The notes under the pieces: generated by a model
The model's input: the letters and a program-made list of their open reading frames with translations, nothing else
Databases searched by the model: none
Told to the model about the DNA's origin: nothing
Assembly: GCA_043802485.1 (NCBI GenBank)
Contig: JAZDKZ010000006.1
Location: 199,497 to 263,496, forward strand
From: Candidatus Aenigmatarchaeota archaeon
Lineage (GTDB): Archaea > Aenigmatarchaeota > Aenigmatarchaeia > Aenigmatarchaeales > Aenigmatarchaeaceae
Length of the DNA: 64,000 nt
Direction: 5' to 3'
Shown: in pieces, positions 960 through 23,204 of the stretch
Numbering within the stretch: the stretch's first letter is position 1
How the letters are laid out: each line of letters begins with the position of its first letter
Program-made: the position numbers and the translations under genes

Positions 960-2477
960 ATGAAAGGTACTATGACAGTATATGTCATCGTTATCACTGT
1001 CTCCGTGATAATAATTCTTCTGATAGGCTCACAACTTTTAGACAAAGTGAAAGCAGCAGTCGATGAGGAAGACTTTGACGCTTTCAGACAGTTTGAGGTT
1101 CAGAGGCCTTACATCTTTGACATTAAAGACCTTATCGTGGATCCTAACGACGAAAAAGTTTGGGACTCCACAAAAGCGGCAGACTTCTATTCTGGCGCCG
1201 ACTCTGATTTTTGCAAAGCGATAAAAGACGGCATAGGAAAGAGCATAAAGACAGGCAAGTCCCAGGAGATAGAGTACAAGGTAAAGCCTCCCAACGCGGC
1301 CTTCAAGATAGAGCAATTAAGAAACGCCCTGGCTTCCTGCACCCCAAGCGTCATAGGCGACGAGCTCTACGGCGGAACGACGAGAAAGATATGCGACTTC
1401 AAGCCCATTGACAATTACAACGAATACAGGGAAGACAGCCTGTCTCTAATAAATTATCAGCCGTACATACACAACTGCCATCTTCCTGCCGAGCTAGAGT
1501 ACTCCAACATTGATGACGGCGAGGACGCGTTAAACTACTTATACAGCGGCAGGGGCAACTCCACAGAATACGGTTTCGAGAACGGAGGGACCGTGAGGAT
1601 AGTCGTTTCTAACGCGAAGGTCATGGAAGATTATGACGGCACATGCTCCTACAATATCTATGTCTGCGGCCAGAACGCCATAGCAGCCTCCGAGGCAGAG
1701 ACCGCTGTTGAAGTCTTCAAGAAGATAAGGCATCTGGACGATAGTAACCTCTACTATAGCGAAGCTATAGTCTGGAACGGTGAGCCGAAAGAACTGGAAG
1801 CGGATATAAAAATATGGGCTCTTTGTAGAGCTATTTTCAGCGATTTGATTCAGCAATTTTTATGTCCCGATGATGCAAGACCATCGGTACCTGCGGGTTA
1901 TAATATATATGGATATAATCCTCATTATTATGAATTCGAATTTTCCAGTGCTGTTCCCAGTCCTAGGCTAGCGCTAATAGACGCTGTTGACGCTGGCATG
2001 TGGGAATGGAGCAAAATCCACTTGGAAGACAGAAACGCGATGCAATATTTTTTGGATGAATACTATCATAGCATACAAAATATATATTTCAGCTACTCAC
2101 CTATAGGAAACGATGACATAGATGTTGACAACGGTCTATCTTTTGACTCTGGCTGCTGGAGAGATACTTACGAAACGGCTGATGTAGGAATAAGAACGCA
2201 GATTTTTGACAGCGCGGTAGAAAGCTTCTCTTATTCCCCATCTTTCAACCACAAATTCAAATTTGATAGTACAATAATTGGCGACAAGGTAAGGATGACG
2301 ATGGGAATAAAGAAACTATTTATTACAAAAAAGCCTATGATATTCAAAACATTAACAGAAACAAAAGAAATTAACGTACTCGAAGAAGTGATTAACAAAT
2401 ACGGTCTTGATGAAGATTTTGGATCTAGAGTTATACTAATTATGGACCCCATAACGTTTTGTAGTATCAGTGAATAA
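960..2477 (+). CDS. Secreted/anchored protein, member 1 of a five-gene paralogous Cys-containing family; pilin-like N-terminus
   Basis: An in-frame ATG at 960 gives MKGTMTVYVIVITVSVIIILLIG. It shares CSYNIYVCGQNAIAA, DSGCW and the C-terminal VRMTMGIKK...ITFC modules with the ORFs at 2632, 4525, 6103 and 9089. Confidence 0.7.
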   Translation: MKGTMTVYVIVITVSVIIILLIGSQLLDKVKAAVDEEDFDAFRQFEVQRPYIFDIKDLIVDPNDEKVWDSTKAADFYSGADSDFCKAIKDGIGKSIKTGKSQEIEYKVKPPNAAFKIEQLRNALASCTPSVIGDELYGGTTRKICDFKPIDNYNEYREDSLSLINYQPYIHNCHLPAELEYSNIDDGEDALNYLYSGRGNSTEYGFENGGTVRIVVSNAKVMEDYDGTCSYNIYVCGQNAIAASEAETAVEVFKKIRHLDDSNLYYSEAIVWNGEPKELEADIKIWALCRAIFSDLIQQFLCPDDARPSVPAGYNIYGYNPHYYEFEFSSAVPSPRLALIDAVDAGMWEWSKIHLEDRNAMQYFLDEYYHSIQNIYFSYSPIGNDDIDVDNGLSFDSGCWRDTYETADVGIRTQIFDSAVESFSYSPSFNHKFKFDSTIIGDKVRMTMGIKKLFITKKPMIFKTLTETKEINVLEEVINKYGLDEDFGSRVILIMDPITFCSISE

Positions 2478-2478
2478 A

Positions 2479-2601
2479 ATGAAAGGATTCCAAAAAGAAA
2501 TCATAATAGGCGTTATCCTCATAGTGCTGGCGTTTTTTGTAGCATTGCTCTTTCTTTCAGGCGTCTTGACATTTGACATGATGGGTCTGTCACCTGTCTG
2601 A
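2479..2601 (+). CDS. 40-aa hydrophobic micro-protein (MKGFQKEIIIGVILIVLAFFVALLFLSGVL...)
   Basis: The ORF is below the track cutoff. It starts 2 nt after the stop of the previous gene and has an MKG start plus one hydrophobic helix, like its neighbours. Confidence 0.3.
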   Translation: MKGFQKEIIIGVILIVLAFFVALLFLSGVLTFDMMGLSPV

Positions 2602-2631
2602 TATTTATACAGGGATTATAAAATAAATTTT

Positions 2632-4497
2632 ATGAGAGGACTGTCCGCCCTTATTATAGCGATTATCTTTGCGGTTGTCTGGGTATTGCTAGTGATACTT
2701 TTTTTAAGACATGTCAATACTTTCGTAGAACCTGCCGGAAATTCTGAGAAAGGGTCAGAACAGAGGATAATACCAAATGACGGCTTTGACTACACCACTT
2801 ACCTTCTAAGTGAGGATCCTGTCGACTTGGCTACTTACGACGAATGCGACAAGCTCAAGAACGCAATAAAGTACGCGATTATCAACGAAAGGCCTTATCT
2901 TGTGGACACAATAGCATACGGCAGCAACCTTGTAGACAAGGTGGACTTTCCGTTCATAGGTAACTGCCTAGACGAGGACCTTGTATTCGAGATAGGTGAG
3001 GGTCTTGAACAAGTCGTGTGCAGATTCAGGACTGCCACGCAGAATGAAAAAGTCGGCTTAGAATTCGGGGGCATATCGGACGCATCGATGCTCTATTTTG
3101 ACAACTGTGTATACGCTTTCGACAACCACAACATACTTCCCTCATTATCGTCAAAGAATATAATGGGACCTGCTGTCGAGGAAACGAGCACAGACGCCAG
3201 CACGGTAAAGGTCATCTACTCGCCTGACCACATGTACATAGAAAACGGGGACTATTCGCATTACCCTTTTGTACCAACCAACTCACCTGTTGCAGGCCTT
3301 AATCGCTTGTATTTGATGAACAGTAGCGCCTTTGACATGGCTTACAACGGCGGTGGCTGGCTGAACATCTACGTGGGCAAGGCCGAGTCAGTCAACGGCG
3401 AATGTAGGTATAATGTGTATTTCTGCCCAAGGCCTGCCATAGCTAGTGACATGCAGAGCAGGACGCTTGACGTCTTCAACATATTCAGAAAGCTTGAGAT
3501 ATATCCTGTATACTTCCCCTATTACATAAGAGACCTTTCGGACGATGCCCTTGACATGTCCGGTTATTCTAATGAAGTTTACCATTGGAACTACTATGAT
3601 GTCGATTTAGGCGATGAGGGGTATGATGTCGAGACTATAGTAAACGCCATAAAGGCTGGCCTTTATTTCAACGTTCACTCCAAGGGTTACGAGTTCGCCC
3701 ATCCACACTGGGACATAGAAAAGGATGACAGTATATCAATTTACGAGCTGGCTAACAAGATAGCATTGCACATAGGCGTTAAAACAGGTTCAGGGGAAAT
3801 ATGCGCCCAAAAGGTGTATTTAGGCCTTCCGTACGGAGACAAGTACTGCACCACAACATCACTACTGCTTTTTGTGGACAGGGACGACCCTATCAAATCT
3901 TACAGGTTTACCAGCAATCCCCTTGGTGATAGCTTCACCCGTTTCGAGGGGAGCTTCGGTACAATACCATCTTCTGTTTACACCAGAAACATCAACACGA
4001 ACAGTTATTTGAACGCTGTATTCGGGGCAGACGATGGTATGATTGCAATAGATATAGGAGTCAAAGAGGGCATGGGGGAGATATGCGTTGACGACCAGTG
4101 CACAGACACCTCGATGATAGTAAAGATAAACCCTGGTACAGAAGTAACCATAAGTGCAAAAGAAGACCCTGGTTACGAGTTCGCCTTTTTCGAAGGCTCT
4201 AGCACAACTTATGATTTAGATACGTTTGATAGGACGATAAACTACGGTGATTTTTTGAACGTCATATTTGTTCCTAATGACGGCGAGATAGGCGATTGCT
4301 GGTACCAGTCCTACAACGAAATGCTGAACGATGCTTCAGAATGGAAACGGACACGCTCGATAAGGTTCAACTGTGGCGGTGACAATGTGTGTAGTGGCAC
4401 CCTGAGGATAAAAATGGCAATAAGGAAGGACACGGATGTTGATGGCGAGGACAAGAAAACATACGTCTCAAGTGTGGTTTCATTCTGCGATACTTAA
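2632..4497 (+). CDS. Secreted Cys-containing protein, family member 2, with two tandem beta-repeat (InlB-B-repeat-like) modules
   Basis: The N-terminus is MRGLSALIIAIIFAVVWVLLVILFL. Family motifs are CRYNVYFCPRPAIA, GDCW and GTLRIKMAIRK...VVSFCDT. An internal repeat reads IGVKTGSGEIC... / IGVKEGMGEIC...EDPGYEFAFFEG. Confidence 0.7.
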   Translation: MRGLSALIIAIIFAVVWVLLVILFLRHVNTFVEPAGNSEKGSEQRIIPNDGFDYTTYLLSEDPVDLATYDECDKLKNAIKYAIINERPYLVDTIAYGSNLVDKVDFPFIGNCLDEDLVFEIGEGLEQVVCRFRTATQNEKVGLEFGGISDASMLYFDNCVYAFDNHNILPSLSSKNIMGPAVEETSTDASTVKVIYSPDHMYIENGDYSHYPFVPTNSPVAGLNRLYLMNSSAFDMAYNGGGWLNIYVGKAESVNGECRYNVYFCPRPAIASDMQSRTLDVFNIFRKLEIYPVYFPYYIRDLSDDALDMSGYSNEVYHWNYYDVDLGDEGYDVETIVNAIKAGLYFNVHSKGYEFAHPHWDIEKDDSISIYELANKIALHIGVKTGSGEICAQKVYLGLPYGDKYCTTTSLLLFVDRDDPIKSYRFTSNPLGDSFTRFEGSFGTIPSSVYTRNINTNSYLNAVFGADDGMIAIDIGVKEGMGEICVDDQCTDTSMIVKINPGTEVTISAKEDPGYEFAFFEGSSTTYDLDTFDRTINYGDFLNVIFVPNDGEIGDCWYQSYNEMLNDASEWKRTRSIRFNCGGDNVCSGTLRIKMAIRKDTDVDGEDKKTYVSSVVSFCDT

Positions 4498-4524
4498 ATA
4501 TATAAGAAAAATTAATTTTATAGC

Positions 4525-5148
4525 ATGACAAGTCCTTGGGCCAGTTTCACTTTCCGTGTTCTACTTATGGTTATATTGGTGCTTCTATTATTTATTTTTG
4601 TATCGTATATCCAACAGCTGCTGGCTAGGGGTGAGACACAAATGAATCCTGAGAAAGAGTACGAGGAGCCTCCGGAAGTAGAGGAGACCTACCTGAGCAT
4701 AGGCGAGGATGATGATCCTGAAACCATATTGTACAAGCTCTTTAGCGAATTTGACCCAGGCTTCCTGAATGAAAAGAGCGGAAACACGGCGCTGTACAAT
4801 CCATTCATACTTTACCTCAAGGGAAAAACTTATAGCCCGATTGACGCCAACGCGCTCATAGGCAACATAGTAGATGGCATTAACGAGTTTAATGACTTGC
4901 ACACATCTGCCCAGTTTGGCTTTAATCCTTCTATTGTCACATGTAACATCCACAGTTCGAGCAGCATAAACTATGACAGTGGCTGTTGGTCAAACACGCT
5001 CAGCACCTCGTCATATTGTAATATTTATGTTCATAGTAATACCAATATTTTTAGCGAAAGGATAAAGATAAGAGTATTGTTAACAAATCTGGGTCCTGTA
5101 ATGGGTAAGAGTATACTAAAAATTACTATAACGATGTGTGATGGTTGA
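4525..5148 (+). CDS. Short member 3 of the paralogous family
   Basis: It has an N-terminal hydrophobic helix. It retains DSGCWSNT, YCNIYVHS and ERIKIRVLL...ITITMCDG, the C-terminal module of the family. Confidence 0.6.
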   Translation: MTSPWASFTFRVLLMVILVLLLFIFVSYIQQLLARGETQMNPEKEYEEPPEVEETYLSIGEDDDPETILYKLFSEFDPGFLNEKSGNTALYNPFILYLKGKTYSPIDANALIGNIVDGINEFNDLHTSAQFGFNPSIVTCNIHSSSSINYDSGCWSNTLSTSSYCNIYVHSNTNIFSERIKIRVLLTNLGPVMGKSILKITITMCDG

Positions 5149-5446
5149 TGGCATGGAAATAAGAACAGCATTTTCAGTTATATTAGGCATAATGATGGTG
5201 GCGACTGTGATTATCGCCATGATTGCCCTGATGGGAGGACTAATGACAGTCTCGGTAGAGGAGTGCGAGCCTGCAGACTATTCTGCAGGAGGATATAGTG
5301 GGAAAGCATGTGGCACTTCAACCAGTGGGCAGCTGAGATGCCGTACAGGAGACACGTGCGTTGATTATAACAATGCTAGATGCTGCGAAGAGAATTATTT
5401 ACAGGAAATAAGGGATGGCCTATGTTGCAAGAGGGTAGAGGTTTGA
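5141..5446 (+). CDS. Small membrane-anchored Cys-rich protein
   Basis: The start is ambiguous (GTG 5138, ATG 5141 or ATG 5153) and overlaps the upstream stop. A hydrophobic helix is followed by 8 Cys (CEPAD...CGTSTSGQLRCRTGDTCVDYNNARCCEENY...LCC). Confidence 0.5.
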   Translation: MVDGMEIRTAFSVILGIMMVATVIIAMIALMGGLMTVSVEECEPADYSAGGYSGKACGTSTSGQLRCRTGDTCVDYNNARCCEENYLQEIRDGLCCKRVEV

Positions 5447-5450
5447 TTTT

Positions 5451-5630
5451 ATGAAAGCATTCGTTCAAAAGTATATAGCGATATTAATCGCGCTTTTGTT
5501 ATTCTTGAGTATAGTGGTTATATGGTTAGTTAACTTGAGACTGACAAGCGGACTTTTCGGAGACAAGACAACTGTAGTGATTATTGCAGGAGCTATAGCA
5601 ATGCTTTTAGGCATAAAGGGGATACCATGA
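5451..5630 (+). CDS. 59-aa two-helix membrane micro-protein
   Basis: MKAFVQKYIAILIALLLFLSIVVIW... The ORF is just below the track cutoff. Its stop overlaps the next start (ATGA at 5627-5630), which suggests coupling. Confidence 0.4.
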   Translation: MKAFVQKYIAILIALLLFLSIVVIWLVNLRLTSGLFGDKTTVVIIAGAIAMLLGIKGIP

Positions 5631-5845
5631 TTAAAAACATACCTTTAACTGTGGTGGTATTGATTTTGGCGTTACTGGTTACCAGTTTATTCATTTCGAT
5701 AGGTTATCGTGTCGCGACTGGCAAGAGCGCTAACGACGCTTGCAAATCTTTTGTAAGAGGAGAGTCAAAGGAGATATGGAACAGGGACGAGTTTAAGGTG
5801 TTCCATCCGGGCGATCTTGTTTGCGCCATAGTCGCCCCTTTTTAA
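5627..5845 (+). CDS. Small membrane-anchored protein
   Basis: N-terminal helix IPLTVVVLILALLVTSLFISIG. The start overlaps the upstream stop, and the gene is co-oriented in the island. Confidence 0.45.
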   Translation: MIKNIPLTVVVLILALLVTSLFISIGYRVATGKSANDACKSFVRGESKEIWNRDEFKVFHPGDLVCAIVAPF

Positions 5846-5854
5846 GGTGTTCAT

Positions 5855-6061
5855 ATGGAAACAGCTATGGAAGAGGAAGCATATACAAAGGTAGTAATAA
5901 TCATAGTAGGTATACTGGCAGTGGTATTGTTCGTAGCGCTTCTTGACATAATGACAGGCGGAACACTCTTCAGGTCTTTGATATGCTCTATGGTATGGTA
6001 TCTTCCTCTAACAGGAACGAACCTCGTAGCATACCTTAACTGTGGCGCAGTTCCCCTATAA
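5855..6061 (+). CDS. Small membrane protein
   Basis: Hydrophobic core VVIIIVGILAVVLFVALLDIM. I preferred it over the antisense ORF 5851..6099 on operon orientation only. Confidence 0.35.
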   Translation: METAMEEEAYTKVVIIIVGILAVVLFVALLDIMTGGTLFRSLICSMVWYLPLTGTNLVAYLNCGAVPL

Positions 6062-6102
6062 TATTTAGTTAATTTTATATTATAGGAATCTAAATTCATG
6101 GT

Positions 6103-9051
6103 ATGAAGGCGCTCACGCTGAACATAGTTCTCGTGCTAATAGGGATTGCTCTTTTGACGTTTTTGGCTGTGTCAGGTTTTTATGACCAAATAGTCAAAGC
6201 TGATATAGCTGCTTACATTACCTCGGGCTTCGAAGGCTGCGGCAGGGCAGGGCAGGAGTGCTGCAAAGGAGAGTGGTGCGTCGAGGGCCTTGACTGCTCA
6301 GGCGGCATTTGCATCGAGGAATTCGAAATAAATATCATAATACCAAAGGACTATCTGATATACAACACCACCGAAACTTTTTCTAGAAGCGAGATGGATG
6401 ATTATTTTAAATACAAAGAAGGCTTGGGTTGGGAGGACTGCTCCAACGGAGTGGGCTGCACAGAATGCAGAAAGCAGTTCGACATCCAAAACGCGATAGA
6501 TTGCGAGGAATGCGAACTTTGCGAGGACGGTCTTTGCAAAAAGTGTCTAAAGTGTCAGAGTGCGGAGACAGGCACTTACAACGATCTTTACGAGTGCTAC
6601 GAGTGCAGTGGGTGTGATATCACTGATATCGAAGGCCTTGTAGGTATCCAGAACGATATGTCTGACTCATGCTCAGCATGCGCTAGCTGCGACATAGCTT
6701 ACGAACCTTATATAAGTAGCGGCCTCTCGTGCGACAGCTGCTACCAGTGCGACCTTGAAAAGGTTTTGACACCTTCAGGAGAGTGCTACTCTTGCTGGGA
6801 CTGCGGCTCAGAAGAGATGGTATGCGATTCTTGTTCATCTTCTGTCAACACTGTTTGCGAAAAAAAGCATGACTATGTGCTGTGCAGAAATGTAAAAAAC
6901 TGCATTCTCTCCAAAAAGGGGGACATGTGCCAATTGGACGAGTTCCTTATACCAGATTTCCTGAGGCTACCCTGGCTCTATGACGATTCATACATATCCC
7001 AGATGACAAGCATCCTGAAGCAATGTGTGGAAGAGGATGTAAAAATAACTATTCCGGAATTATTGGAACGCAAGGTCTTTGAGTACGACAATTCTAAAAT
7101 AAACTTTATCCAGGACGATTACACGCTGCCGTCAGACGGAACGCTGCTCAAGATATATTTCGAGGCAGACGACGAATCGTACGTCCCGCCGGCAAGGCTC
7201 TTGGACATGTTGACGTCGGATTACCAGTATGGCGGCGTTACAGGCGAGACAAAAGGATTGCTCTTCAACGACTGTGGCGTCAGAAAGACTGAGCCCATCT
7301 CGAAGCCTGATACTGTTAATGAGATAGTTTACAACAACGACCCAGTACTTTTCGAATCTTCTACAACACCGAAAATGCCTAATGGTGACATACCTGTTAG
7401 CGTAAAGACAGTCGTGACTGACATCTCGTGGAACGAGCAGAATGACAACGACGGTTCCTACAGCCTTTACCTATGTGGCCAAGAGGCCATAGCAACAGGG
7501 GAAGAAGATCCCATATTAAATGTCTATGACTTTTTCGCTTACTTTAACGAATCAGAGGCAGACAACTTTGCATCATACAGGGAATGGAGCATTCCGTACA
7601 ATGATGCGATGGGCGCCTACCATGTCAACGTTACTGTAGTAAAGTACGTTCCGTTTGAGATGGACATAACAGGAAGAACAGCTGATATAGCCCATATAGC
7701 AAAGGCAGCGGTTGCAGGTATAAGGGATTATTTCGTATTCAACTCAGAAACCAACAGGACCATGAAATTCTTCTGCTTTTCCAGCGGAATTTATGATGAC
7801 TTTGACGACTGCTATGGAAACATCTCTGTGGTCTTGAACGACAGGATGCCTTGGAAATTAAAGGGGCTGTACTCATCGGTAAACATAGCAGCCAGTCCTC
7901 CCAGCCGTAAATTCATATACTATAATGATGAAAGGAACCTCTATTCTGGTACCTTCGAGATTGAACTAGCTTTCTTCATGTACACTACGAACTTCACAGA
8001 AATAAACAAAACCATCTTCGTTTCGCCTGTTTTAATTATAGATGGAAGCTCCATACCAGGCTCAACGGTTCTGGATTTCACACCATGTGAGCAAAGAGAA
8101 CTCCAGAACGGGTTTGTAGCCTATGGTTATCACAAAAACCTTGGAACTGTCTACGCGGTTGATTATGAATTATGGGGCACAGAGTACTACAAGGACCCAG
8201 AAGACATAAGACCGTCTCATATGAAAATATACGGAGTCAGCATGCTGTCAAAAACAGACTCTGACATAAGTTATCTGAACGAGGACCCGGACAACTGCAT
8301 CGCGCTGTGCGCTTCTGGAGCTGAGATGCGGGGCAGGATAACTGAAGACGATACAACGTGCTTGAACGCAGCAGCCAGGTGCTCTTATGAGGAAGGTTTT
8401 CTAAGACTCTTGGACATGGTTGAACTCCAAGCGAACAGGGTCGTATATGAAAACATGCAGGAAGATGCTGAAGAGGTTGAAGACTTCATAGAAGAAATCA
8501 AGCAAAAGGTGCTCGCTGTTCCCGTGACCTATACCATAGGCGTCATGGACGGGGGCGGATCGATATGCGCAGACAGCCTTGACATAGACCAGTTCTGCGT
8601 AAGCGACAGCCTGACAAGAGATTTTGAGTACTGCCAAGGGATGCTTTTCACCGCCAATCCAGATGAGGACTATACCTTCATGAGGTTTAAGAACAGCACA
8701 AACGTCTATTACGGCATAAATCCAATGCTAAACTTTGCGCGGGAAGGGGAGTACATATACGCAGATTTCAATCCGACATTATACTACACACTGGCAGTTG
8801 CAGAGGGTTCAGGGAGTCTATGCATTACAGGTATCGACTTTCCTGTCTCGGGCTGCGGCTATGACGCATCAGGAACCGTGGTACCAGTACCAAAGGACAT
8901 AATGGTGAGTCTCACAGCCACACCAGCACTAGGCTTTACATTCAATAACATAGGAACAGGCTACGAGGATATACCCCCTGTGACGGATAGAAGCACCGAT
9001 TTCATGACCATGATGAGTGCAAGTCTATACGCGTACTTTGACCCAGAGTAA
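6103..9051 (+). CDS. Giant secreted Cys-rich protein, family member 4 (knot-like module, CxxCxxC array, family core, two beta-repeat modules)
   Basis: N-terminus MKALTLNIVLVLIGIALLTFLAV. It contains six CxxCxxC heptads (aa 113-252), the family motif YSLYLCGQEAIATG, and C-terminal repeats GVMDGGGSIC... / VAEGSGSLC...LTATPALGFTF. Confidence 0.75.
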   Translation: MKALTLNIVLVLIGIALLTFLAVSGFYDQIVKADIAAYITSGFEGCGRAGQECCKGEWCVEGLDCSGGICIEEFEINIIIPKDYLIYNTTETFSRSEMDDYFKYKEGLGWEDCSNGVGCTECRKQFDIQNAIDCEECELCEDGLCKKCLKCQSAETGTYNDLYECYECSGCDITDIEGLVGIQNDMSDSCSACASCDIAYEPYISSGLSCDSCYQCDLEKVLTPSGECYSCWDCGSEEMVCDSCSSSVNTVCEKKHDYVLCRNVKNCILSKKGDMCQLDEFLIPDFLRLPWLYDDSYISQMTSILKQCVEEDVKITIPELLERKVFEYDNSKINFIQDDYTLPSDGTLLKIYFEADDESYVPPARLLDMLTSDYQYGGVTGETKGLLFNDCGVRKTEPISKPDTVNEIVYNNDPVLFESSTTPKMPNGDIPVSVKTVVTDISWNEQNDNDGSYSLYLCGQEAIATGEEDPILNVYDFFAYFNESEADNFASYREWSIPYNDAMGAYHVNVTVVKYVPFEMDITGRTADIAHIAKAAVAGIRDYFVFNSETNRTMKFFCFSSGIYDDFDDCYGNISVVLNDRMPWKLKGLYSSVNIAASPPSRKFIYYNDERNLYSGTFEIELAFFMYTTNFTEINKTIFVSPVLIIDGSSIPGSTVLDFTPCEQRELQNGFVAYGYHKNLGTVYAVDYELWGTEYYKDPEDIRPSHMKIYGVSMLSKTDSDISYLNEDPDNCIALCASGAEMRGRITEDDTTCLNAAARCSYEEGFLRLLDMVELQANRVVYENMQEDAEEVEDFIEEIKQKVLAVPVTYTIGVMDGGGSICADSLDIDQFCVSDSLTRDFEYCQGMLFTANPDEDYTFMRFKNSTNVYYGINPMLNFAREGEYIYADFNPTLYYTLAVAEGSGSLCITGIDFPVSGCGYDASGTVVPVPKDIMVSLTATPALGFTFNNIGTGYEDIPPVTDRSTDFMTMMSASLYAYFDPE

Positions 9052-9088
9052 AGTTGAAATTTATATGTAAAAACAAGGAGATAAGAAT

Positions 9089-11794
9089 ATGGGATTAGGA
9101 CCTGAAGCAAAATTAATACTGAAAATATTGTCCATTGTAATAGTCCTTGCTGTAATCATGTTGGTATTTCTTCCTTTATTCTTCGGTATCAACATAATAG
9201 GCTTGTTAACACAGACTCCTGACAACCTAGGAGACATTTTCCTAGCAAAGGATTTTGATGAAGCAGACATGTATGAGGGATACGAATTGATATATGACGG
9301 CATGGTGCTCCCAAAGGACGGTGGCGAGGACAGCATAAGCAATGAGTTGAGGTCTTACGAGGTTATTTCTGATTGCAGTGGCTGCACATCTTGCGGTACA
9401 AGGGACTTGGAAGGTATGCAGGCAGTAGGTTGTGATAGCTGTAGCGTGTGTAATGAGATAGACGAACCTGGGAGATTCGAAAATTGTTTAGGATGTCAAA
9501 GTGGAAGATGTATGTTCTGTGACGATGAGAACAAGTACGAGCTCTGTAAAGAAATAAAGTCGTGTATATTGGAGTACTATGGCGACAGCAACTATAAGGA
9601 CGTTCACGGCTGCTTCCTGAGACAGATACCGCATAACGACGGCACGTCATTTAACATAGACGTCTTGAAGAGCGTTCTCGACACGTGCGTCGGTGAGCCT
9701 ATAATGATCAACATGGGAAACGACTTTGTGAGAGAACTATGCTACTTTGACCCTAATTTCATAGCTTTCTACGATGTGAGCAGGCCCGAAGACTATTACA
9801 TGAAGCATGAGATGAATGCTATATATGGTGCCGCAAATCCAAGCAGAATTCCATCAATCTACAGAAATATTCTTGAATCTGATGTCATCACACCGTTTTA
9901 TATGGAAGACAACGAGGTACTAGACCGCTATAGAATTTACATTTCCTTTACAGGTACTCCAAACGGTGAATACAAAATATTAGGGGGCTATCTCGGTGCA
10001 AATTATGAGAAAGAATTTACTATGGTCACAACTGATTCGAATGGTCTATGGTACGGAGAACTAGGATTTCCAGAGGAATGGAGAAGTGATGTAGACGATG
10101 ATGAAAGCAAAAACAAATTTAATTTCATATGGGTTAGACAATGGGACAGTTCCAGTGTAGCTACGAATCTGAACGGAGCAGTCTATCTCAACGACCCAGA
10201 ATCAGGTTACATCTGGTCCCATGACCTAAGGTTTTCAAAGTGCAACTTCGAAACCAACCCCGAGCCCTATCTTGACCCTAGACCGTGGTGGGTATACGGC
10301 GACTTGACAGAATCGCCGTTAACTAAAAATCAAGGAAGCCAAGACTCTGCTATAAAGGTCTTCTATGATTCAAATATGCCTGGCGGAGGTAACAGCGACC
10401 TCAGAGGGAACATAAAGCTACAGATAGGAAGGCTGGACACTGACTTTCAAAGGAACTGTATGTTCGACATATACGTCTGCTCCCAAGATGCCCTTGCAGA
10501 GTATGAGGGAGAGAATATACTCAACATAAACGACTTTATGATAAACTTTGATCCATTGTATGTCAACAAGGTAATTGACGCCGGAAGCCATGAGATAATA
10601 CTCTATAATTATTTCGAACTAGAGCTTGACAGGGGCTACACAGCTGATGAGATAAGGTCAGCATTGAAATCCGGTTTTAGGGTTTGGGAGCACACATTTT
10701 TCCCTTACGCAAGCTTCTACGGCTCTACTGCGTGGATAGACCGAGTCAACAACGATGGCATATACCAGGGAACATGGTTGGAAAGGATGCCAGACGTCAG
10801 TTATGATAACGATTGTTGGAGCACTAGCGTTCAGAACCTCATGACGCAAGACTCAAGGTTCATCGTAGGAGGCTGCGAGGGCGACATGTGTACCGGAAAG
10901 TTAAAGATAAGGATAGCTTTCAAGTACGAGGATCCGAAAGACAATTTAGGAATTAGACAATTCCTTTACCCGACTGTCACTTTCTGCAGCTCAGAGGAAG
11001 AGACACCGCCAGAACCTCCGCAGATGTACCCAGGTCTGGTTGGTACTTGTGAAGAAGTTTATGACTACCACATATCCACTCCAGGCAATCCGGATTACTG
11101 CCAATTCAGCTGGGGCAAAGCCTCTTGCAATGCAGTAACAGGCGATTGCTCATGCGCACCAGGGGCAACAAGGCAGACGCTGGGCTCGTTCTTCACATAT
11201 CACAATACCGACTCTCCTCCTGGCAGCTGGCTTGCTCCTTTCTATGAAACAGACTTTAACGGCTATGGCTTTTTGATAGGCTGTGTTGAGACAACCAGCT
11301 CGATCATCGAAAGGCCTACAGGAGTATGCACATTGACTTATGACATAATATCCCAAAACATAAAATCTTGCGACGACCCGCCATCTCCACTATGCCAAGG
11401 CAGCGAAGCTAGTTCCCAATGTTTAGGAAGTCCAAGAGAGGTTTTCCAGAATTACAAGTGGGGCCCTGGAAGCAGTGGCTATAACGATCCAGTCTACGGC
11501 CATACCTACATGACAACTGCAGTTACTGGTTCAAATACAATATTGGGTACGTGCCAAGAGTACTGGAATGTTCCTCAATTCGGGGTTTATTCCTACGGCC
11601 GTCCCCCGACTCCGGTCCAAAAAACAGATTGCCGATGGAATTGGGGGTCGGCAGAATGCGATGAAGACACGCACGAGTGCTCGTGCCCCGAAGGCCCACC
11701 GACAGAAATTGTAAACGGTTACATATGGAATCCTGATGTAACAACCTCTTACCTAAAGCCAGGCTACGGCAGGCTCTACGCGTGCATAGGGTAG
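9089..11794 (+). CDS. Giant secreted Cys-rich protein, family member 5 (CxxC region, family core, duplicated Cys/Trp C-terminal domain)
   Basis: An N-terminal helix is followed by CSGCTSC/CDSCSVC/CLGCQSGRCMFC. Family motifs are CMFDIYVCSQDALA, NDCWSTS and GKLKIRIAFKY...TVTFCSSEE. Two roughly 85-aa C-terminal repeats follow (GTCEEV...CQFSWGKASC...CSCAPG and GTCQEYW...CRWNWGSAEC...CSCPEG). Confidence 0.75.
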   Translation: MGLGPEAKLILKILSIVIVLAVIMLVFLPLFFGINIIGLLTQTPDNLGDIFLAKDFDEADMYEGYELIYDGMVLPKDGGEDSISNELRSYEVISDCSGCTSCGTRDLEGMQAVGCDSCSVCNEIDEPGRFENCLGCQSGRCMFCDDENKYELCKEIKSCILEYYGDSNYKDVHGCFLRQIPHNDGTSFNIDVLKSVLDTCVGEPIMINMGNDFVRELCYFDPNFIAFYDVSRPEDYYMKHEMNAIYGAANPSRIPSIYRNILESDVITPFYMEDNEVLDRYRIYISFTGTPNGEYKILGGYLGANYEKEFTMVTTDSNGLWYGELGFPEEWRSDVDDDESKNKFNFIWVRQWDSSSVATNLNGAVYLNDPESGYIWSHDLRFSKCNFETNPEPYLDPRPWWVYGDLTESPLTKNQGSQDSAIKVFYDSNMPGGGNSDLRGNIKLQIGRLDTDFQRNCMFDIYVCSQDALAEYEGENILNINDFMINFDPLYVNKVIDAGSHEIILYNYFELELDRGYTADEIRSALKSGFRVWEHTFFPYASFYGSTAWIDRVNNDGIYQGTWLERMPDVSYDNDCWSTSVQNLMTQDSRFIVGGCEGDMCTGKLKIRIAFKYEDPKDNLGIRQFLYPTVTFCSSEEETPPEPPQMYPGLVGTCEEVYDYHISTPGNPDYCQFSWGKASCNAVTGDCSCAPGATRQTLGSFFTYHNTDSPPGSWLAPFYETDFNGYGFLIGCVETTSSIIERPTGVCTLTYDIISQNIKSCDDPPSPLCQGSEASSQCLGSPREVFQNYKWGPGSSGYNDPVYGHTYMTTAVTGSNTILGTCQEYWNVPQFGVYSYGRPPTPVQKTDCRWNWGSAECDEDTHECSCPEGPPTEIVNGYIWNPDVTTSYLKPGYGRLYACIG

Positions 11795-11938: not shown

Positions 11939-12211
11939 TCATGACAAGCACCTGTTATCTACGCAGTCAAAGCTGCCGCAATCGGTATCATCGATACAGC
12001 CGCAGAAGTTCGAGCCTCCGTTTATGCTGAGGCATATGCCGTTGCCCCGTTCGCGGCATTCTGACGTTGTTTTGCACTCGTTGGAAGTCTGTGAAGAAGT
12101 GGCACCAATAGGTGCTGCGCGCGCCTGGTTAGAAAATAGGAAGCCAGAAAAAACAGACATCACTAACAAGAGGACAAACACCATCATCATCAAAATAAAG
12201 ACCAAGTCCAT
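11939..12211 (-). CDS. Small secreted Cys-rich (8 Cys) protein; the only minus-strand gene in the island
   Basis: A signal-like N-terminus (MDLVFILMMMVFVLLLVMSVFSGFLF) is followed by CKTTSECRERGNGICLSINGGSNFCGCIDDTDCGSFDCVDNRC. The overlapping plus-strand ORFs are low-complexity. Confidence 0.55.
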   Translation of the reverse strand: MDLVFILMMMVFVLLLVMSVFSGFLFSNQARAAPIGATSSQTSNECKTTSECRERGNGICLSINGGSNFCGCIDDTDCGSFDCVDNRCLS

Positions 12212-12274: not shown

Positions 12275-12592
12275 ATGGGTAAGGGTGCCAGTTTTGTAAT
12301 GAATATAATTATAATCGTGTTTATTGTGGTAATCATGGCACTTATCTACTTTCAGATTGTCAACCCGACGGTAAAGGCCCAAGAACAAGTGGTTTCAGAT
12401 ATGGATATAATGTGGTACTGCCCTGATTGGCAAAAGAACGGATGCTCGATTGTTAGCGCCGAAAATATCAAGATAAAAGATACTGACGACGGCTATCTCT
12501 CTGATCTCTGCGCAGAAAGATACGGTACTGCTTGGAGCAAAGATGTCTATGAGCAGTGCAAGGAGTTATGCAAAGGATGCACGAGTGAATAG
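12275..12592 (+). CDS. Pilin-like protein (small-pilin paralog A)
   Basis: MGKGASFVMNIIIIVFIVVIMALIYF has a KG followed by a hydrophobic helix. It has 4+ Cys and the tail DLCAERYG...CKELCKGC, shared with the ORFs at 18570, 18945 and 19890. Confidence 0.6.
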   Translation: MGKGASFVMNIIIIVFIVVIMALIYFQIVNPTVKAQEQVVSDMDIMWYCPDWQKNGCSIVSAENIKIKDTDDGYLSDLCAERYGTAWSKDVYEQCKELCKGCTSE

Positions 12593-12595
12593 GTT

Positions 12596-12910
12596 ATGAT
12601 TATGAAAGGTGTTTCGTTAGCAGTAACAGCTGTCATACTGATGGTATTAGCAGCAGTAGTCCTTTTAGCATACATATACTTTATATCAGGCAGCAAAGGT
12701 CAGATAGACATACTGCAATACCAGTCAGCACTGAGAAGCTGTTGCGGTGACAGGACAAAATACAAATGCGATGGAATTACCATAAACTGCAAGGTTCCGT
12801 GGAGCGATGAGCCTATGTCTATTGATAAACTTGCTGAGAAAGCCGGTATAACATGGGATTCTACTGAATTTGACAGTTTTTGTTTCTGTCCAGAACCAGC
12901 AGGTGCTTGA
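12596..12910 (+). CDS. Pilin-like protein (small-pilin paralog B)
   Basis: (MI)MKGVSLAVTAVILMVLAAVVLLAYIY. An alternative ATG at 12602 gives an MKG start. The C-terminal half is Cys-rich, and the gene sits 3 nt after the upstream stop. Confidence 0.6.
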   Translation: MIMKGVSLAVTAVILMVLAAVVLLAYIYFISGSKGQIDILQYQSALRSCCGDRTKYKCDGITINCKVPWSDEPMSIDKLAEKAGITWDSTEFDSFCFCPEPAGA

Positions 12911-15900
12911 ATGGTAGCAATTACACAGGCAATAGAAACTGCAATAGCAGTTATAATATTCGTATTCCTAGTAATGCTTTTCTTCATGATATTCGGCAAT
13001 TCTGAATGCGAAGGCATGTCTGACTCGACGGCAGCGCAGCTAGCTGACGCCGTAAACAAGGTCGTGCTGGAAGACGGCATCCAACCGTGGACAGGAGGAG
13101 GCGTTCCAGGCGACGATGACACTGACTACTACGAACCTGTTGCCATAAGGCTCTGCGAGGTAAACTCTATGAACGGGTTTGCAGCTCAGTTCATGGCGCA
13201 GCAGCCTACATACATGATTGTTTTTGAATCCTTTCCCGAAGGCACTGTTTCTTGGCACGAGACTCAACCCTGGAGCGGGGGCGCTGTCCAAGCAGTATTA
13301 GAGTATTCACAGATGAGATGGGGGCTTAAAGCATTGACTTTTGGCGGAAAGCTTACTGCGATATTGGTGAGAAGGGGTGGAGGGTTTGTCAAAAACGTTA
13401 TAACAAAATACTCGTGGGCGCTTTTAGGCAGAAAACTCACCAGAGCTTTGGACTATGTTAGGAACAGTCGGATTGTCAAATGGTTCATGGTCAAGTTGGG
13501 CAGATCAAACACCCAGACAACTATCGCCGATACAGCAGACGACTTCCTCAACCCGAGATATATGACTAACAATAATTTGGGGTTGACCAGCGAATACAAC
13601 AAATTCTTGTTGGTGTCTAAAAAAGGCAGAGACCATGCTCTGGTAGCTATGGGAGCAATAGAAGGAGTATTCGACTACAGTGCAAATGCTTTTGTCCCAA
13701 TACCAAACAAAGCAGGAAAGTATATTGTCAATGAAGGCTTCAGAGACTTTATGATTAATTTTGTAGACAATATGGGTGAAGACGGCAAGGTTCTGGGTGA
13801 TATGCTCCAGATACCATCAAGATTCCCAAAACTCGCTGAAAGACTAAGCAGTATCAAAGATCGTTTATGGCGCCCGCTCAAAGGAGCTGTAACAGACTGG
13901 TGGCACGATAGCAGCCTGAAAAGATACGTCTATGACGCACCGAGAGAACTCTACAGAAAGATAAGGGGAAAAACAGACGATGCAAAGAATGCGTTCAACA
14001 AAATATTCAACTATGGGAACGGCATGACCGATCCTAGGATAATATCCAAACAGGCAGGAGCTGCCAAAGAATACGCGATGAGGAACAGCGACAAGCTCAT
14101 GAAGGAGGTAGTCGACAATTTTGACGACCCGAAGATAGCAGACTTTGTAAATGATCTGCAAAAGGTTACAGGAAAGGTCTACGAGAGCGGTGCCGACATA
14201 ACTCAGACTGACATAATTTCGTACATAAACAAGTACAACAGATGGGAAAACATGCAGGACTTTGTAGAGTTCCTACCAAGGGAGCAGCTGGACCTGAGGA
14301 GTAATGCATACAAATGGATGGGGGGGGATATAAAGGACAGCGCTGAAAAATTGAAGAAAGGAGATATTTCATACGAGACTTTCATTGAAAGGTTTAAACC
14401 TTGGGACGATTTGGAGGGAAGACAAAGTGATTTGGTAAATGATTTCTCTAAAGGCTATACAAGGAATGGCCAAAAATTCACTATTGAAGTCGAACACGCT
14501 AAAGACGCATACGAGTACGCCAGATTAAGGGCAGCAGCAGAAGGGATATTTGACGCTGCAAATAGTGGTAGAACGAACTGGCTCGCAAACCAGGCTGACG
14601 AAATAGAAACCGCTCTAATAAGAGAGCAGTACAGACTGGACAAGTATGTTACAGACGATGTGAAAATAATAGACTATATAATGAAAAACTCCATATCAGA
14701 TTCTTCCCTGGATAAATTCCCCTTAGTGACAAATACCCTCAGTTATGGATGGCAGAGATTAAAGAGGGGAGTGTATCTGGACCTTAACAGGATAGGCGGG
14801 ATAGAGGGAGCCCCGTCATTAGCACCTTATAATTTAGTCCCAGGAGCCTACACGGCTGAGAGGGTGGTTGAAAAGGAGACTGAGATAAAAGAAGGCGGGT
14901 GCGCCAGCAATTCGATATGCAGGATAGTGAAAGGCCGTGCAGAGGGCCCGACAGAAACTGCCAGAGCATACTTACTTGATAGGAAGGTTCCAGAAGGTAT
15001 AGAAGTAAAGCTTTGGAGGGAAAACCCAGACATTGGTGTTGTCGGATCAGACAGAACTGTCGCAGGCGTTAACACGATATTAATGAGCATATTTCCGCCT
15101 CAGGAGAATCCTAATTTCTATGTGGTAAGCCCGTGCTTTGCAATTGCCAAGGTCTGGAAAGAAGGAAGCGAAGGGCCTGTTTACGTAGAGATAGACAAGA
15201 GCAAGAAATGTGATGTCAGCGGTTGCAATCAGCTAACCACCGACAACGTCGACACACCAAACTATTGCTATGCTAGCGAGGAGTTTGTATGGGGGGAGAG
15301 TGACGAACCCAACCAGTGGAGCTATGTGGCCGCTTATTTTGGATGCGTATTCGCTTGCGAAGGCGGTACAATAGGTCTAGGAACGCCCGAGTGCATAAAG
15401 ACTTGTAAATATAGCACTATAGGAGCATTGCTATTGCAAGCAACGGCTGCAACGCAGGAATATAGAAGCCCGAGCTGGGAAAGACAAGACACAGGCTGGG
15501 GCTATTGGAACTATCAAAAGGCAGAAGACGTATGCGACCTGATAGACATGGTATCCAGCATAGGCGGTGGAAAAAGTTTTACTAATGCTAAAGGCCTTGA
15601 CAAGCTAAAAGCAGCAAAGGGGCTGGGAGAAAAGTGGGATATTTTCAAACAACTGGGCAAGGGCGACGTGGCAAAATTCGTCGGAGGGCAGTTCTTCAAC
15701 CTTAACGACGTGTGCTACAGCCTGCTGCTTATGGGAGACACATCTTTGTCATGGCCTGTAAAGACACCGGCAGCCGAAGTTTGGAGAAAGGGAGCCATTC
15801 TAGGACAGGACTGCATGCAGCAGTCGGCAGGCAGTTGTGTATGGCTGAGAAAGTGCACCAACGCAGCAAATGATTGCCCAATAGGTTGGTATTGCGACAT

Positions 15901-15931
15901 GGATGCGAACATTTGCAGAAAGGGTGATTAG
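12911..15931 (+). CDS. 1006-aa membrane-anchored protein of unknown function with a six-Cys C-terminal module
   Basis: The ATG directly abuts the upstream TGA. N-terminus MVAITQAIETAIAVIIFVFLVMLFF, then a long charged helical middle. The C-terminus is C-x7-C-x5-C-x6-C-x5-C-x6-C (CMQQSAGSCVWLRKCTNAANDCPIGWYCDMDANIC). I recognised no family. Confidence 0.7.
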   Translation: MVAITQAIETAIAVIIFVFLVMLFFMIFGNSECEGMSDSTAAQLADAVNKVVLEDGIQPWTGGGVPGDDDTDYYEPVAIRLCEVNSMNGFAAQFMAQQPTYMIVFESFPEGTVSWHETQPWSGGAVQAVLEYSQMRWGLKALTFGGKLTAILVRRGGGFVKNVITKYSWALLGRKLTRALDYVRNSRIVKWFMVKLGRSNTQTTIADTADDFLNPRYMTNNNLGLTSEYNKFLLVSKKGRDHALVAMGAIEGVFDYSANAFVPIPNKAGKYIVNEGFRDFMINFVDNMGEDGKVLGDMLQIPSRFPKLAERLSSIKDRLWRPLKGAVTDWWHDSSLKRYVYDAPRELYRKIRGKTDDAKNAFNKIFNYGNGMTDPRIISKQAGAAKEYAMRNSDKLMKEVVDNFDDPKIADFVNDLQKVTGKVYESGADITQTDIISYINKYNRWENMQDFVEFLPREQLDLRSNAYKWMGGDIKDSAEKLKKGDISYETFIERFKPWDDLEGRQSDLVNDFSKGYTRNGQKFTIEVEHAKDAYEYARLRAAAEGIFDAANSGRTNWLANQADEIETALIREQYRLDKYVTDDVKIIDYIMKNSISDSSLDKFPLVTNTLSYGWQRLKRGVYLDLNRIGGIEGAPSLAPYNLVPGAYTAERVVEKETEIKEGGCASNSICRIVKGRAEGPTETARAYLLDRKVPEGIEVKLWRENPDIGVVGSDRTVAGVNTILMSIFPPQENPNFYVVSPCFAIAKVWKEGSEGPVYVEIDKSKKCDVSGCNQLTTDNVDTPNYCYASEEFVWGESDEPNQWSYVAAYFGCVFACEGGTIGLGTPECIKTCKYSTIGALLLQATAATQEYRSPSWERQDTGWGYWNYQKAEDVCDLIDMVSSIGGGKSFTNAKGLDKLKAAKGLGEKWDIFKQLGKGDVAKFVGGQFFNLNDVCYSLLLMGDTSLSWPVKTPAAEVWRKGAILGQDCMQQSAGSCVWLRKCTNAANDCPIGWYCDMDANICRKGD

Positions 15932-16651
15932 ATGAAGAGTATAACAGAGCATTTCTTGCTGTTCATAGTGGGCATATTCGTCATTGTTATAGTCATGACA
16001 ACAATATTCGGAAAAGGAATAGCCTACAATTATCTAAGCTACCTGTCGACCATCGAGCCGAGAGGCCTCCAAGAGAACATAAGAAACGTGCTGACTGTAG
16101 CATCCTATTCGCCAGGAGAGTTTGAGGCAAGGATTCCGATAAACGTCAAGCACAGCATAACCATAACAGACAACCCGAAGACCATTGTCATTCTACCCGA
16201 ATCGGAAAGCCAGCTGGCGCAGACAAATCCGCAGCCTTTCATGTCACAGTGCGACATGGTCAAGAGGTGCACAAAGGTCTGCAAGATGATAGGCGACAAA
16301 TGCGCTGGGCGTGAGGATTGCTGCGGCCTGCTCAGCTGCAATACAAGAGGCCGCTGCGAGAGCACCTTTGGCATGTGCGGCAACCAGATTCTTGAAGATG
16401 GAGAAGAGTGCGAGCCTGCAGACCCGGAAGGAGAACCACCCTTTGATGGTATTGATAATAATTGTGAAAGCCAGTGCAGCGAGGACTGTAGTTGTCCTGA
16501 TGAGTTAAAAACCACCCAGCCATGCACAAACAGTAACCAATGCTTCCATCAGATGGAATGCCTCACCTTCGTAAAGTTCTACGACGTGGGAGAGGTAATG
16601 ATTATAAGAAAGTATTTTGAGGGAGACCAATGCAAGATAACCATCGAATGA
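15932..16651 (+). CDS. Membrane-anchored protein with a knottin-spaced Cys module and a CGN...GEEC repeat
   Basis: The ATG abuts the upstream TAG. N-terminus MKSITEHFLLFIVGIFVIVIVMTTIF. CKMIGDKCAGREDCCGLLSCNTRGRC has C6C5CC4C5C spacing, and CGNQILEDGEECEPAD resembles the myxococcal Cys-rich repeat. Confidence 0.65.
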   Translation: MKSITEHFLLFIVGIFVIVIVMTTIFGKGIAYNYLSYLSTIEPRGLQENIRNVLTVASYSPGEFEARIPINVKHSITITDNPKTIVILPESESQLAQTNPQPFMSQCDMVKRCTKVCKMIGDKCAGREDCCGLLSCNTRGRCESTFGMCGNQILEDGEECEPADPEGEPPFDGIDNNCESQCSEDCSCPDELKTTQPCTNSNQCFHQMECLTFVKFYDVGEVMIIRKYFEGDQCKITIE

Positions 16652-17121
16652 AGGGGGCCTTCGCCCTTAGCGAGACTTTCATAAAAATACTGTCAACAGG
16701 AGTGTTGGCGATAATACTCCTGGCCATTTTTCTGTCGATAAACAATTATCACCTTATCTACGCGGAGAATGCAATCGACAGGGAGGCCCTTATTGTCGGC
16801 AACACTGTGCTGTCCAGCTGCATAGCGGAAGGCTACGACGAAGGAAAGCCTATAAAGGCCCTTTTGTCAGAGGAGAAGATAGTATACAAATATGATTCTG
16901 TAAGCGAATCAAACATAGACTGCTTGGAATATGAAAAGGGAATATACATAGAGATTTATGACGAGGATTCATTGTTGTACGGATTTGGAGACAGGCATGT
17001 GTGTAAAAGCCCGTCAAATACCATTTGTGAGGTGGACAGGGGCATGATGGTATTTCCCGCTGCGCTGAAAGGAGCAGCAATCGTGATACCTGTAACTGTG
17101 AACGTATATGTTGGTGATTAG
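16648..17121 (+). CDS. Pilin-like protein (minor-pilin candidate)
   Basis: The ATG at 16648 overlaps the upstream stop (ATGA). N-terminus MKGAFALSETFIKILSTGVLAIILLAIFL. Confidence 0.6.
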   Translation: MKGAFALSETFIKILSTGVLAIILLAIFLSINNYHLIYAENAIDREALIVGNTVLSSCIAEGYDEGKPIKALLSEEKIVYKYDSVSESNIDCLEYEKGIYIEIYDEDSLLYGFGDRHVCKSPSNTICEVDRGMMVFPAALKGAAIVIPVTVNVYVGD

Positions 17122-18520: not shown

Positions 18521-18569
18521 TCCTTCTAAATCTAAAAAGTTTATATGAGAGATACATCATAATTCTATC

Positions 18570-21723: not shown

Positions 21724-23204
<1,481 letters not shown>

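Follow-up and report, generated by a model that had tools for sequence, protein, structure and literature searches.

The Aenigmatarchaeota are uncultured DPANN archaea, presumed to be attached to hosts, and a stretch of DNA from one of them raises the question of what is built from five proteins encoded close together near its start. The stretch, called the window throughout, comprises 64 kb of archaeal DNA (contig JAZDKZ010000006.1, assembly GCA_043802485.1). It carries a complete archaeal 16S rRNA gene (21724-23204, minus strand), and proteins encoded in it are identical to V1818_03710, V1818_03720 and V1818_03725 of a 'Candidatus Aenigmatarchaeota archaeon' metagenome-assembled genome. A preliminary description, made from the letters of the DNA, had proposed that the open reading frames (ORFs, named here by their first nucleotide in the window) 960, 2632, 4525, 6103 and 9089 encode a five-member paralogous family of secreted proteins that share two short cysteine-containing modules. 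We find that the five are related throughout a domain for which our searches returned no known relative, and that their conserved position in a type IV pilus-like operon makes them most likely subunits or adhesins of a lineage-specific surface structure. For comparison we gathered protein-database orthologues of ORF 960 (34 proteins, 35-53% identity) and ORF 2632 (30 proteins); a homologue search with ORF 4525 returned 2 proteins. A contig look-up together with scans of genome and metagenome contigs gave 22 related loci, from which orthogroups of 22 (960), 21 (2632), 14 (4525), 12 (6103) and 11 (9089) sequences were drawn; one of these loci, L001, was used for position-by-position comparison.

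Paralogy was examined by BLASTP, by hhalign comparison of the orthogroup profiles and by running orthogroup hidden Markov models (HMMs) against all ORFs of the window. Among the window proteins, BLASTP gave E values of 3e-7 to 3e-3 for several pairs (2632-960, 3e-7; 6103-9089, 1e-6; 2632-9089, 3e-5), and values down to 1e-11 against orthologues of other paralogues. Profile comparison was more decisive, pairing 960 with 2632 (98.4% probability, E 4e-15, 363 columns) and with 6103 (98.7%, 2e-16, 240 columns), 2632 with 6103 (98.4%, 8e-15, 249 columns) and with 9089 (97.8%, 1e-12, 191 columns), 6103 with 9089 (99.2%, 6e-20, 317 columns), and the short 4525 with 9089 (97.1%, 7e-11, 134 columns; residues 69-206 against 480-634). 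These pairs form a chain joining all five ORFs, with 9089 as a hub that connects 2632, 4525 and 6103. ORF 5138, a syntenic neighbour included as a control, is unrelated, scoring below 10% probability against all five, and the orthogroup HMMs matched the five ORFs and no others in the window. The proposed family is therefore borne out by BLASTP, by profile probabilities of 97-99% and by the confinement of the HMM matches; with hhalign E values from 7e-11 to 6e-20, the sharing of motifs goes far beyond chance. On this evidence ORFs 960, 2632, 4525, 6103 and 9089 are true paralogues, with exactly five members in the window.

The preliminary description had located the shared core in two short modules. 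Every motif that it quoted is present at the expected coordinates, and the modules are indeed conserved, but the alignments indicate that homology spans a whole alpha/beta domain of 300-420 amino acids (aa), of which modules 1 and 2 are the best-conserved pieces. A loose pattern for module 1 occurs four times in the six-frame translation of the 64 kb, always within family genes: at 1644-1688 in ORF 960 (CSYNIYVCGQNAIAA; coordinates are on the plus strand unless marked otherwise), at 3403-3447 in ORF 2632 (CRYNVYFCPRPAIAS), at 7459-7497 in ORF 6103 and at 10457-10501 in ORF 9089. The DxxCW signature that opens module 2 lies at 2145-2159 (960), 4291-4302 (2632), 4975-4989 (4525) and 10808-10819 (9089), and the K-I-R-I strand and the terminal [TS]-[FM]-C were also found at their expected places. 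In ORF 960 the module 2 region extends over 2145-2462 (DSGCW at 2145-2159, a KVRMTMGIKK strand at 2286-2315 and a terminal ITFC strand at 2451-2462); in ORF 2632 it extends over 4291-4494 (GDCW, GTLRIKMAIRK, VSFCDT), and in ORF 9089 over 10808-10993. Outside the modules the family alignments share a helix after module 1 (VEVFKKIRHLD, LDVFNIFRKLE, LYKLFSEFD, LNINDFMINFD), a further strand (YYEFEF, YYDVDL, FILYL, YFELEL) and a long helix (ALIDAVDAGMWEW, ETIVNAIKAGLYFN, ALIGNIVDGINEF, DEIRSALKSGFRVW).

Two members depart from this scheme. Both modules are common to 960, 2632, 6103 and 9089, but not to 4525, which lacks module 1 and aligns only with the portion of the core that follows it. The stretch YCNIYVHS of ORF 4525, taken earlier for a degenerate module 1, aligns instead with SRFIVGGC in 9089, SIRFNCGG in 2632 and HKFKFD in 960, and so belongs to module 2, where it forms a strand that lies between DxxCW and K-I-R-I. 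The Cys-free module 2 attributed to ORF 6103 has collinear equivalents at 7837-7854, 7948-7983 and 8017-8040, namely NDRMPW (matching DxxCW, with Pro for Cys), GTFEIELAF and FVSPVLII (matching DPITFC), but taken alone it does not reach significance (E 0.03-0.4). Trp and Pro are retained in module 2 of the 6103 family and both cysteines are replaced in every orthologue; as the two are lost together, the DxxCW Cys and the terminal Cys of the other families would seem to pair as a disulfide. Ten cysteines are conserved in the alignment of ORF 960 orthologues. The window's own copies show two further deviations: ORF 960 lacks both members of a Cys pair (positions 91 and 102) that no fewer than 90% of its orthologues possess, and ORF 6103 has Gly (residue 452, nucleotide 7459) in place of the first module 1 Cys of all its orthologues, leaving an odd cysteine.

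AlphaFold2 (AF2) models built from orthologue alignments place these conserved pieces in a common architecture. The model of ORF 960 (predicted local distance difference test, pLDDT, 82; predicted template modelling score, pTM, 0.80) has a helix at residues 2-35 and disorder at 37-49, and that of ORF 2632 (pLDDT 81.7, pTM 0.71) has a helix at 4-28; both consist of an N-terminal helix, a low-confidence linker and an alpha/beta ectodomain with an identical order of elements. Module 1 is predicted to occupy the second strand of a long beta-hairpin, together with the turn that leads on to a helix (strand 228-239 and helix 248-257 in ORF 960; strand 257-268 and helix 278-286 in ORF 2632). Module 2 would comprise the loop that precedes a short helix, as well as a central and the final strand, with strands modelled at 443-447, 450-455 and 498-503 in ORF 960 and at 586-602 and 610-620 in ORF 2632. 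In these models the ectodomain falls into three parts, an N-subdomain, the module 1 hairpin with its helix, and a C-terminal helix/beta-sheet subdomain that corresponds to module 2.

That the core is not a named domain, as had been supposed, was upheld by every search. Scans with Pfam and NCBIfam found no recurrent family in the five proteins, in 25 and 29 orthologues or in the small proteins of the cluster, and family profiles found no match in sequence searches of the PDB. The predicted structure, compared by Foldseek with the PDB and BFVD using the insert-free model of ORF 960, returned nothing (best E 0.27-0.29, TM-score at most 0.1). The model of ORF 2632 did give matches, to the tandem Ig-like domains of sortase pilins, SdrD and cadherins (E 4e-5, probability 0.99, TM-score about 0.2); since these were to Ig-like tandems only, they are attributable to an insert described below and not to the core.

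The lengths noted for the five proteins (505, 621, 207, 982 and 901 aa) were correct, as was the view that they differ through added modules. ORF 960 (960-2477, 505 aa) is the full-length member that consists of the core only: MKG and a hydrophobic helix, a linker, an N-subdomain at residues ~80-190 and the core at ~190-505. Its ATG at 960 is the true start, in agreement with V1818_03710 and with the orthologue alignment. ORF 2632 (2632-4497, 621 aa) begins with MRG and a hydrophobic helix, followed by the N-subdomain and a core interrupted by a pair of Ig-like beta-sandwiches. This insert (residues ~372-550, 3745-4281; all-beta at 376-548 in the AF2 model) comprises two all-beta domains, Ig-like or B-repeat-like, sits between the halves of the C-terminal subdomain and is visible as a gap in the hhalign alignments; most orthologues, for example that in L001, lack it and have DxxCW directly after HPHWD. 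The likeness to sortase pilins is confined to the fold of the insert; the protein ends in VSFCDT and has no LPXTG. Pfam Flg_new_2 (divergent InlB B-repeat) scored 16.5 and 17.5 bits on the 2632 insert and the 6103 C-terminus, below its threshold of 23.6, and matched one orthologue with E 3.3e-5. ORF 4525 (4525-5148, 207 aa) is a minimal member with an N-terminal anchor lacking [KR][GA], an acidic linker and the C-terminal half of the core (residues 69-207). The public protein V1818_03725 (168 aa) starts this gene 39 codons late and so loses the N-terminal hydrophobic segment, which all 14 orthologues keep.

The two largest members carry cysteine-rich additions. ORF 6103 (6103-9051, 982 aa) has MKA and a hydrophobic helix, a CxxCxxC array, the N-subdomain, the core at residues ~430-646 and a C-terminal extension (8050-9048), part of which consists of B-repeat-like domains, homologues of the ORF 2632 insert. 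Its array (residues 113-244, 6439-6834) consists of seven C-x2-C-x2-C triplets spaced ~15-25 residues apart and is conserved in the L001 orthologue. ORF 9089 (9089-11794, 901 aa) has a long N-terminal anchor without [KR][GA], the N-subdomain, an insertion of ~200 aa, the core at residues ~440-635 and a Cys-rich C-terminal extension (11006-11791); it carries a shorter version of the array in a CxxC-rich region (residues 96-144, 9374-9520). The arrays of both proteins match no Pfam family; on proteins of the cell surface they might serve as a disulfide ladder or bind metal. BLAST did not bear out the suspicion of an internal repeat within the C-terminal extension of ORF 9089. Pfam and NCBIfam scans also found PKD domains in some single orthologues of the family. 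A further Cys-rich module (C..GC.WCP.CSGYKVN.W...C...) is carried by different proteins of the cluster in different genomes: by the L001 orthologue of ORF 5138 (14640-15008), by the C-termini of the ORF 960 orthologues P0030 and P0032 (E 3e-21 and 9e-17) and, more weakly, by the C-termini of orthologues of ORFs 6103 and 9089 (E 3e-5 and 8e-4; L001 15820-18219 and 18315-20582). Judged from such alignments, domains are shuffled among the surface proteins of this cluster.

The five genes are read as ancient paralogues, and each has its own orthologues in the related genomes. A profile of the ORF 960 family recovered 80 proteins at E of 1e-3 or below among 1.84 billion representatives, and these fall into the same paralogue classes as the window genes. 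The distribution is narrow, with a relative present in only 4 of 185,579 species-representative genomes.

How these proteins may reach the surface is suggested by their N-termini. The preliminary description had called them secreted; all five do carry an N-terminal hydrophobic export or anchor segment, but the term is too loose, as three families have a prepilin-type start and two a plain anchor. In the families of 960, 2632 and 6103, M-[KR]-[GA] (MKG, MRG and MKA in the window) directly precedes ~22 hydrophobic residues, giving a class III-type site with a charged residue at -2, Gly or Ala at -1 and an H-domain of ~20 residues. Distant homologues included, [KR][GA] stands at the edge of the hydrophobic segment in 58 of 71 960-like (82%), 40 of 58 2632-like (69%) and 16 of 20 6103-like proteins (80%), against a background rate of 6.7% per 10-aa window. 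At least eight further genes of the cluster have an MKG-type start. Archaeal class III processing sites include KGQV, RALS and RAVS (PMC4371748). The leader in the three families would be only 3 residues long; PibD cuts leaders as short as 3-4 aa (PMC4307647), so that M-[KR]-[GA] fits the minimum known for this enzyme.

The genomic setting, which the preliminary description had not taken up, points the same way. From nucleotide 16 to ~20250 nearly all genes lie on the plus strand at tight spacing, and almost every product has an N-terminal hydrophobic segment. Directly upstream of ORF 960, at 16-930, are the C-terminal 304 aa of a FlaJ/TadC/PilC-like platform protein of ~690 aa whose start lies upstream of the window. 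It matches Pfam T2SSF weakly (E 0.003). Its counterparts in 18 related loci are proteins of 690-699 aa; it shares 66-79% identity with their C-terminal half, and their N-terminal half also matches T2SSF (E 3.7e-5), giving two weak repeats. In the related loci a 744-aa T2SSE ATPase (Pfam 4e-12) precedes the platform gene; its nearest solved structures are the Archaeoglobus secretion ATPase afGspE (2OAP, 3e-30), FlaI and CpaF. The family genes are thus linked to a PilB/FlaI-type ATPase and a PilC/FlaJ/TadC-type platform, and the order ATPase, platform, 960, a 40-aa ORF, 2632, 4525, 5138, small membrane ORFs, 6103, 9089 was found in all 11 related loci that extend far enough. The 40-aa ORF (2479-2601; MKG and a hydrophobic segment, with a 40-aa gene at the same place in L001) and ORF 5138 (5138-5446), a small Cys-rich anchored protein syntenic in the related loci, are members of the operon outside the family. 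A viral or mobile-element origin was rejected, as the locus is chromosomal, syntenic beside housekeeping genes in many genomes and uniform in composition.

Other genes surround this array. Small membrane ORFs of 59, 72 and 68 aa at 5451-6061, with similar-sized counterparts at the same L001 positions, stand between the large genes and are likely further parts of the apparatus. The cluster runs a further 8 kb (12275-20246), mostly with M-K-G plus hydrophobic N-termini, and its genes there match no known family: two small paralogues (12275 and 12596, E 2e-4), a 1006-aa anchored protein (12911-15931), ORFs 15932, 16630, 17122 and 17663, and three small paralogous pilin-like genes (18570-18893, 18945-19367 and 19890-20246; E 2e-9 to 4e-5). 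The small MKG-type genes of this region are candidates for the major pilin or pilins. A 90-aa Cys-rich secreted ORF (11939-12211) lies on the minus strand inside the plus-strand operon, and has a counterpart at the same place in L001 (20737-21015, minus strand). Directly upstream of the ATPase, and beyond the limits of the window, three conserved polytopic membrane proteins (~160-190 aa, about five transmembrane segments each) are encoded in all the related loci (2741-4415 in L001, with equivalents in L003-L022); they match no Pfam family, have no GxGD motif and may belong to the same system. Elsewhere in the window the 16S rRNA gene stands alone, and since no 23S or 5S rRNA gene occurs within the 64 kb the rRNA genes are unlinked. 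An Rfam tRNA match at 25981-26107 (minus strand; 127 nucleotides, 37 bits), which ARAGORN did not call, is probably an intron-containing archaeal tRNA, and two tandem tRNA-Asn(GTT) genes lie at 35860-36063.

Taken together, we consider it probable, though well short of settled, that the five paralogues are non-redundant minor-pilin-like or adhesin-like subunits of a type IV filament-type surface structure. The N-terminal helix followed by a confidently modelled globular domain, the adhesin-type Ig-like insert and the separate orthogroups kept in fixed order are in accord with this. The analysis shows that the genes are paralogous and syntenic, that they have the N-terminal motifs and the predicted secondary structure described above, and that known relatives are lacking; cleavage, assembly, complex formation and adhesion we infer, along the following lines. 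The hydrophobic helix would take the proteins into the membrane, where a prepilin peptidase would remove the minimal M-[KR]-[GA] leader in the 960, 2632 and 6103 families. From these and from the small pilin-like products of the downstream genes the ATPase/platform motor would then build a surface structure, in which the five paralogues might form a complex at the tip or the base, or else a bindosome-like array; members of the 4525 and 9089 families would probably remain as membrane-anchored partners. The common core, its module 2 very probably held together by a Cys after DxxCW and the last Cys, would act as a scaffold, and the variable grafted modules (tandem Ig-like domains, CxxCxxC arrays, Cys-rich C-terminal modules and, in some orthologues, PKD domains) would offer binding surfaces, plausibly for attachment to host cells. 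A role in host attachment is suggested by the DPANN lifestyle and by analogy with type IV pili, which have such a role in ultrasmall episymbiotic bacteria (PMC9894109).

Several observations weigh against this reading. The [KR][GA] motif occurs at the hydrophobic edge in none of 15 9089-like and only 1 of 15 4525-like proteins, and a general preference at N-termini or at translation starts could account in part for M-K at positions 1-2. No cluster protein matched a pilin, archaellin or class III-signal profile, even at E of 1 or below, when tested with profiles such as Pfam Class_IIIsignal and the NCBIfam archaeal flagellin N-terminal-like domain. Neither the 64-kb window nor the 10-kb flanks of the related loci hold an A24 prepilin peptidase; a search for one among the ORFs with several transmembrane segments, in the window and in related loci, brought up a presenilin-type SPP, a rhomboid, an M50 peptidase, ZIP, MarC and MFS proteins, none of them A24. 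Foldseek gave no pilin-like fold for the core, and in the models the N-terminal helix is short (~25-34 aa) and leads into a linker of pLDDT below 50, apparently without packing on a sheet as in classical pilins. Finally, proteins of 500-980 aa cannot be the bulk subunits of a filament.

Some of these points would also fit proteins that are inserted by Sec and stay signal-anchored by an uncleaved helix, as components of an envelope layer (wall or S-layer-like) or a membrane-proximal scaffold, their adjacency to pilus genes reflecting co-regulation or coincidence. The 4525 and 9089 families, without a prepilin motif, would suit such a role, the modelled succession of helix, disordered linker and ectodomain is typical of signal-anchored proteins, and there was neither a match to a pilin profile nor a prepilin peptidase in the window or the fetched flanks. 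We nevertheless regard this as unlikely: [KR][GA] falls exactly at the hydrophobic edge in three families and their distant homologues (69-82%, where the background is 6.7%), no related locus departs from the gene order that follows the ATPase and platform, and the rest of the cluster is filled with small MKG-type pilin-like genes.

Those same genes, together with a dedicated ATPase and platform in one cluster, are also in line with the five being ectoproteins with ligand-binding, scavenging or enzymatic functions, displayed by means of a class III signal and a dedicated PilB/PilC-type machine without being parts of a pilus. The combination of a minimal class III-type N-terminus, a flexible linker following the helix and a large non-pilin ectodomain is in keeping with this, and the sugar-binding proteins of the Sulfolobus Bas system provide a precedent (PMC4371748). 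We likewise give this only a small share of the probability, as the proteins resemble neither substrate-binding proteins nor any enzyme family (the ABC-transporter substrate-binding family found no match in Pfam, NCBIfam, PDB sequence or fold searches), their grafted modules are of adhesin type (Ig, PKD, Cys-rich), and five fixed, divergent paralogues in constant order suggest a hetero-oligomer over interchangeable binding proteins. Far less credible than either is the notion that the motifs are shared by chance or through low-complexity likeness of unrelated Cys-rich secreted proteins. It could appeal to the ten recurrences of [IVT][TS]FC in the six-frame translation and to the insignificance of the Cys-free module of ORF 6103 on its own, but it is refuted by profile matches of 97-99% over 134-363 columns, by HMM matches confined to five ORFs and by the collinear order of secondary structure in two independent AF2 models, and we give it practically no weight.

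A bolder version of the minor-pilin or adhesin reading, which strikes us as something of a long shot, has the five paralogues join with the ATPase, the platform and ~15 further small anchored proteins of this 20-kb cluster in a hetero-oligomeric host-contact organelle of a kind not seen before. Were it true, a filament motor would erect a large disulfide-locked complex of new fold, and not a simple pilus, and host recognition, or even an exchange of metal or redox equivalents with the host, would depend on the CxxCxxC arrays and on the swappable modules (Ig-like, PKD, Cys-rich). The cluster represents a concrete, conserved candidate for an attachment apparatus, in which a type IV filament motor is combined with five large surface proteins that co-evolve, have an uncharacterised but confidently modelled fold and carry adhesin-type modules that can be exchanged. 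Databases gain a new domain family from it, and at least one annotated gene start is corrected.

Comparison with known systems places the locus more closely. In the Sulfolobus bindosome, large non-pilin proteins with class III signals are assembled by PilB/PilC homologues (PMC4371748). Its substrates, like the present proteins, are several times the size of a pilin and have prepilin-type N-termini; they depend on a dedicated PilB/PilC pair and on small pilin-like proteins, as the present proteins may do. The bindosome subunits are recognisable solute-binding proteins of ABC transporters, whereas the present core matches no binding-protein family. PilB and PilC of Streptococcus sanguinis (PMC8179133) resemble the five paralogues in bearing large functional modules on an N-terminal pilin-type helix; there, however, a complete pilin module precedes the extra module, while here no pilin module is recognisable and the scaffold is a novel domain.

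There is a likeness, too, to the minor pilin sets, FimU-PilVWX and GspHIJK in bacteria and the five or more minor pilins of the Epd-type system of Methanococcus (PMC4858521), which are also paralogous, non-redundant subunits encoded beside an assembly ATPase and platform, with an N-terminal hydrophobic helix behind a [KR][GA]-type site. Minor pilins likewise exceed the major pilin in size and elaboration, and are presumed to make up a tip or priming complex. The globular part of the present proteins is 3-10 times larger and bears no pilin fold or sequence signature, a linker separates helix and ectodomain, and two of the five families lack the cleavage motif. Archaeal type IV pilus loci commonly hold at least five minor pilins together with large Cys-rich adhesin-like proteins (PMC4858521), and by analogy the layout of the window is that of an archaeal type IV filament locus. 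DPANN islands of dark-matter genes beside a secretion ATPase and TadC have been read as encoding diverse pilins (Makarova, Wolf & Koonin 2019, PMC6393860), and here as there uncharacterised proteins with signal peptides adjoin these two genes. That prediction is generic, and describes neither the five-paralogue family, with its core, its motifs and its want of structural relatives, nor the split between class III-type and anchor-type members. A 2026 survey of archaeal type IV filament systems (10.64898/2026.04.22.720090) does not describe the family either, and in the literature searched we did not find the five-paralogue set, its relative-less domain, the class III-type/anchor-type division or the narrow lineage distribution. 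The locus as such is of a kind already known, a type IV filament locus with fast-evolving pilin-like proteins and large Cys-rich adhesin candidates. Current ideas are not overturned by it, since the pilus loci of archaea, DPANN included, are known to be full of fast-evolving pilin-like proteins that defy annotation.

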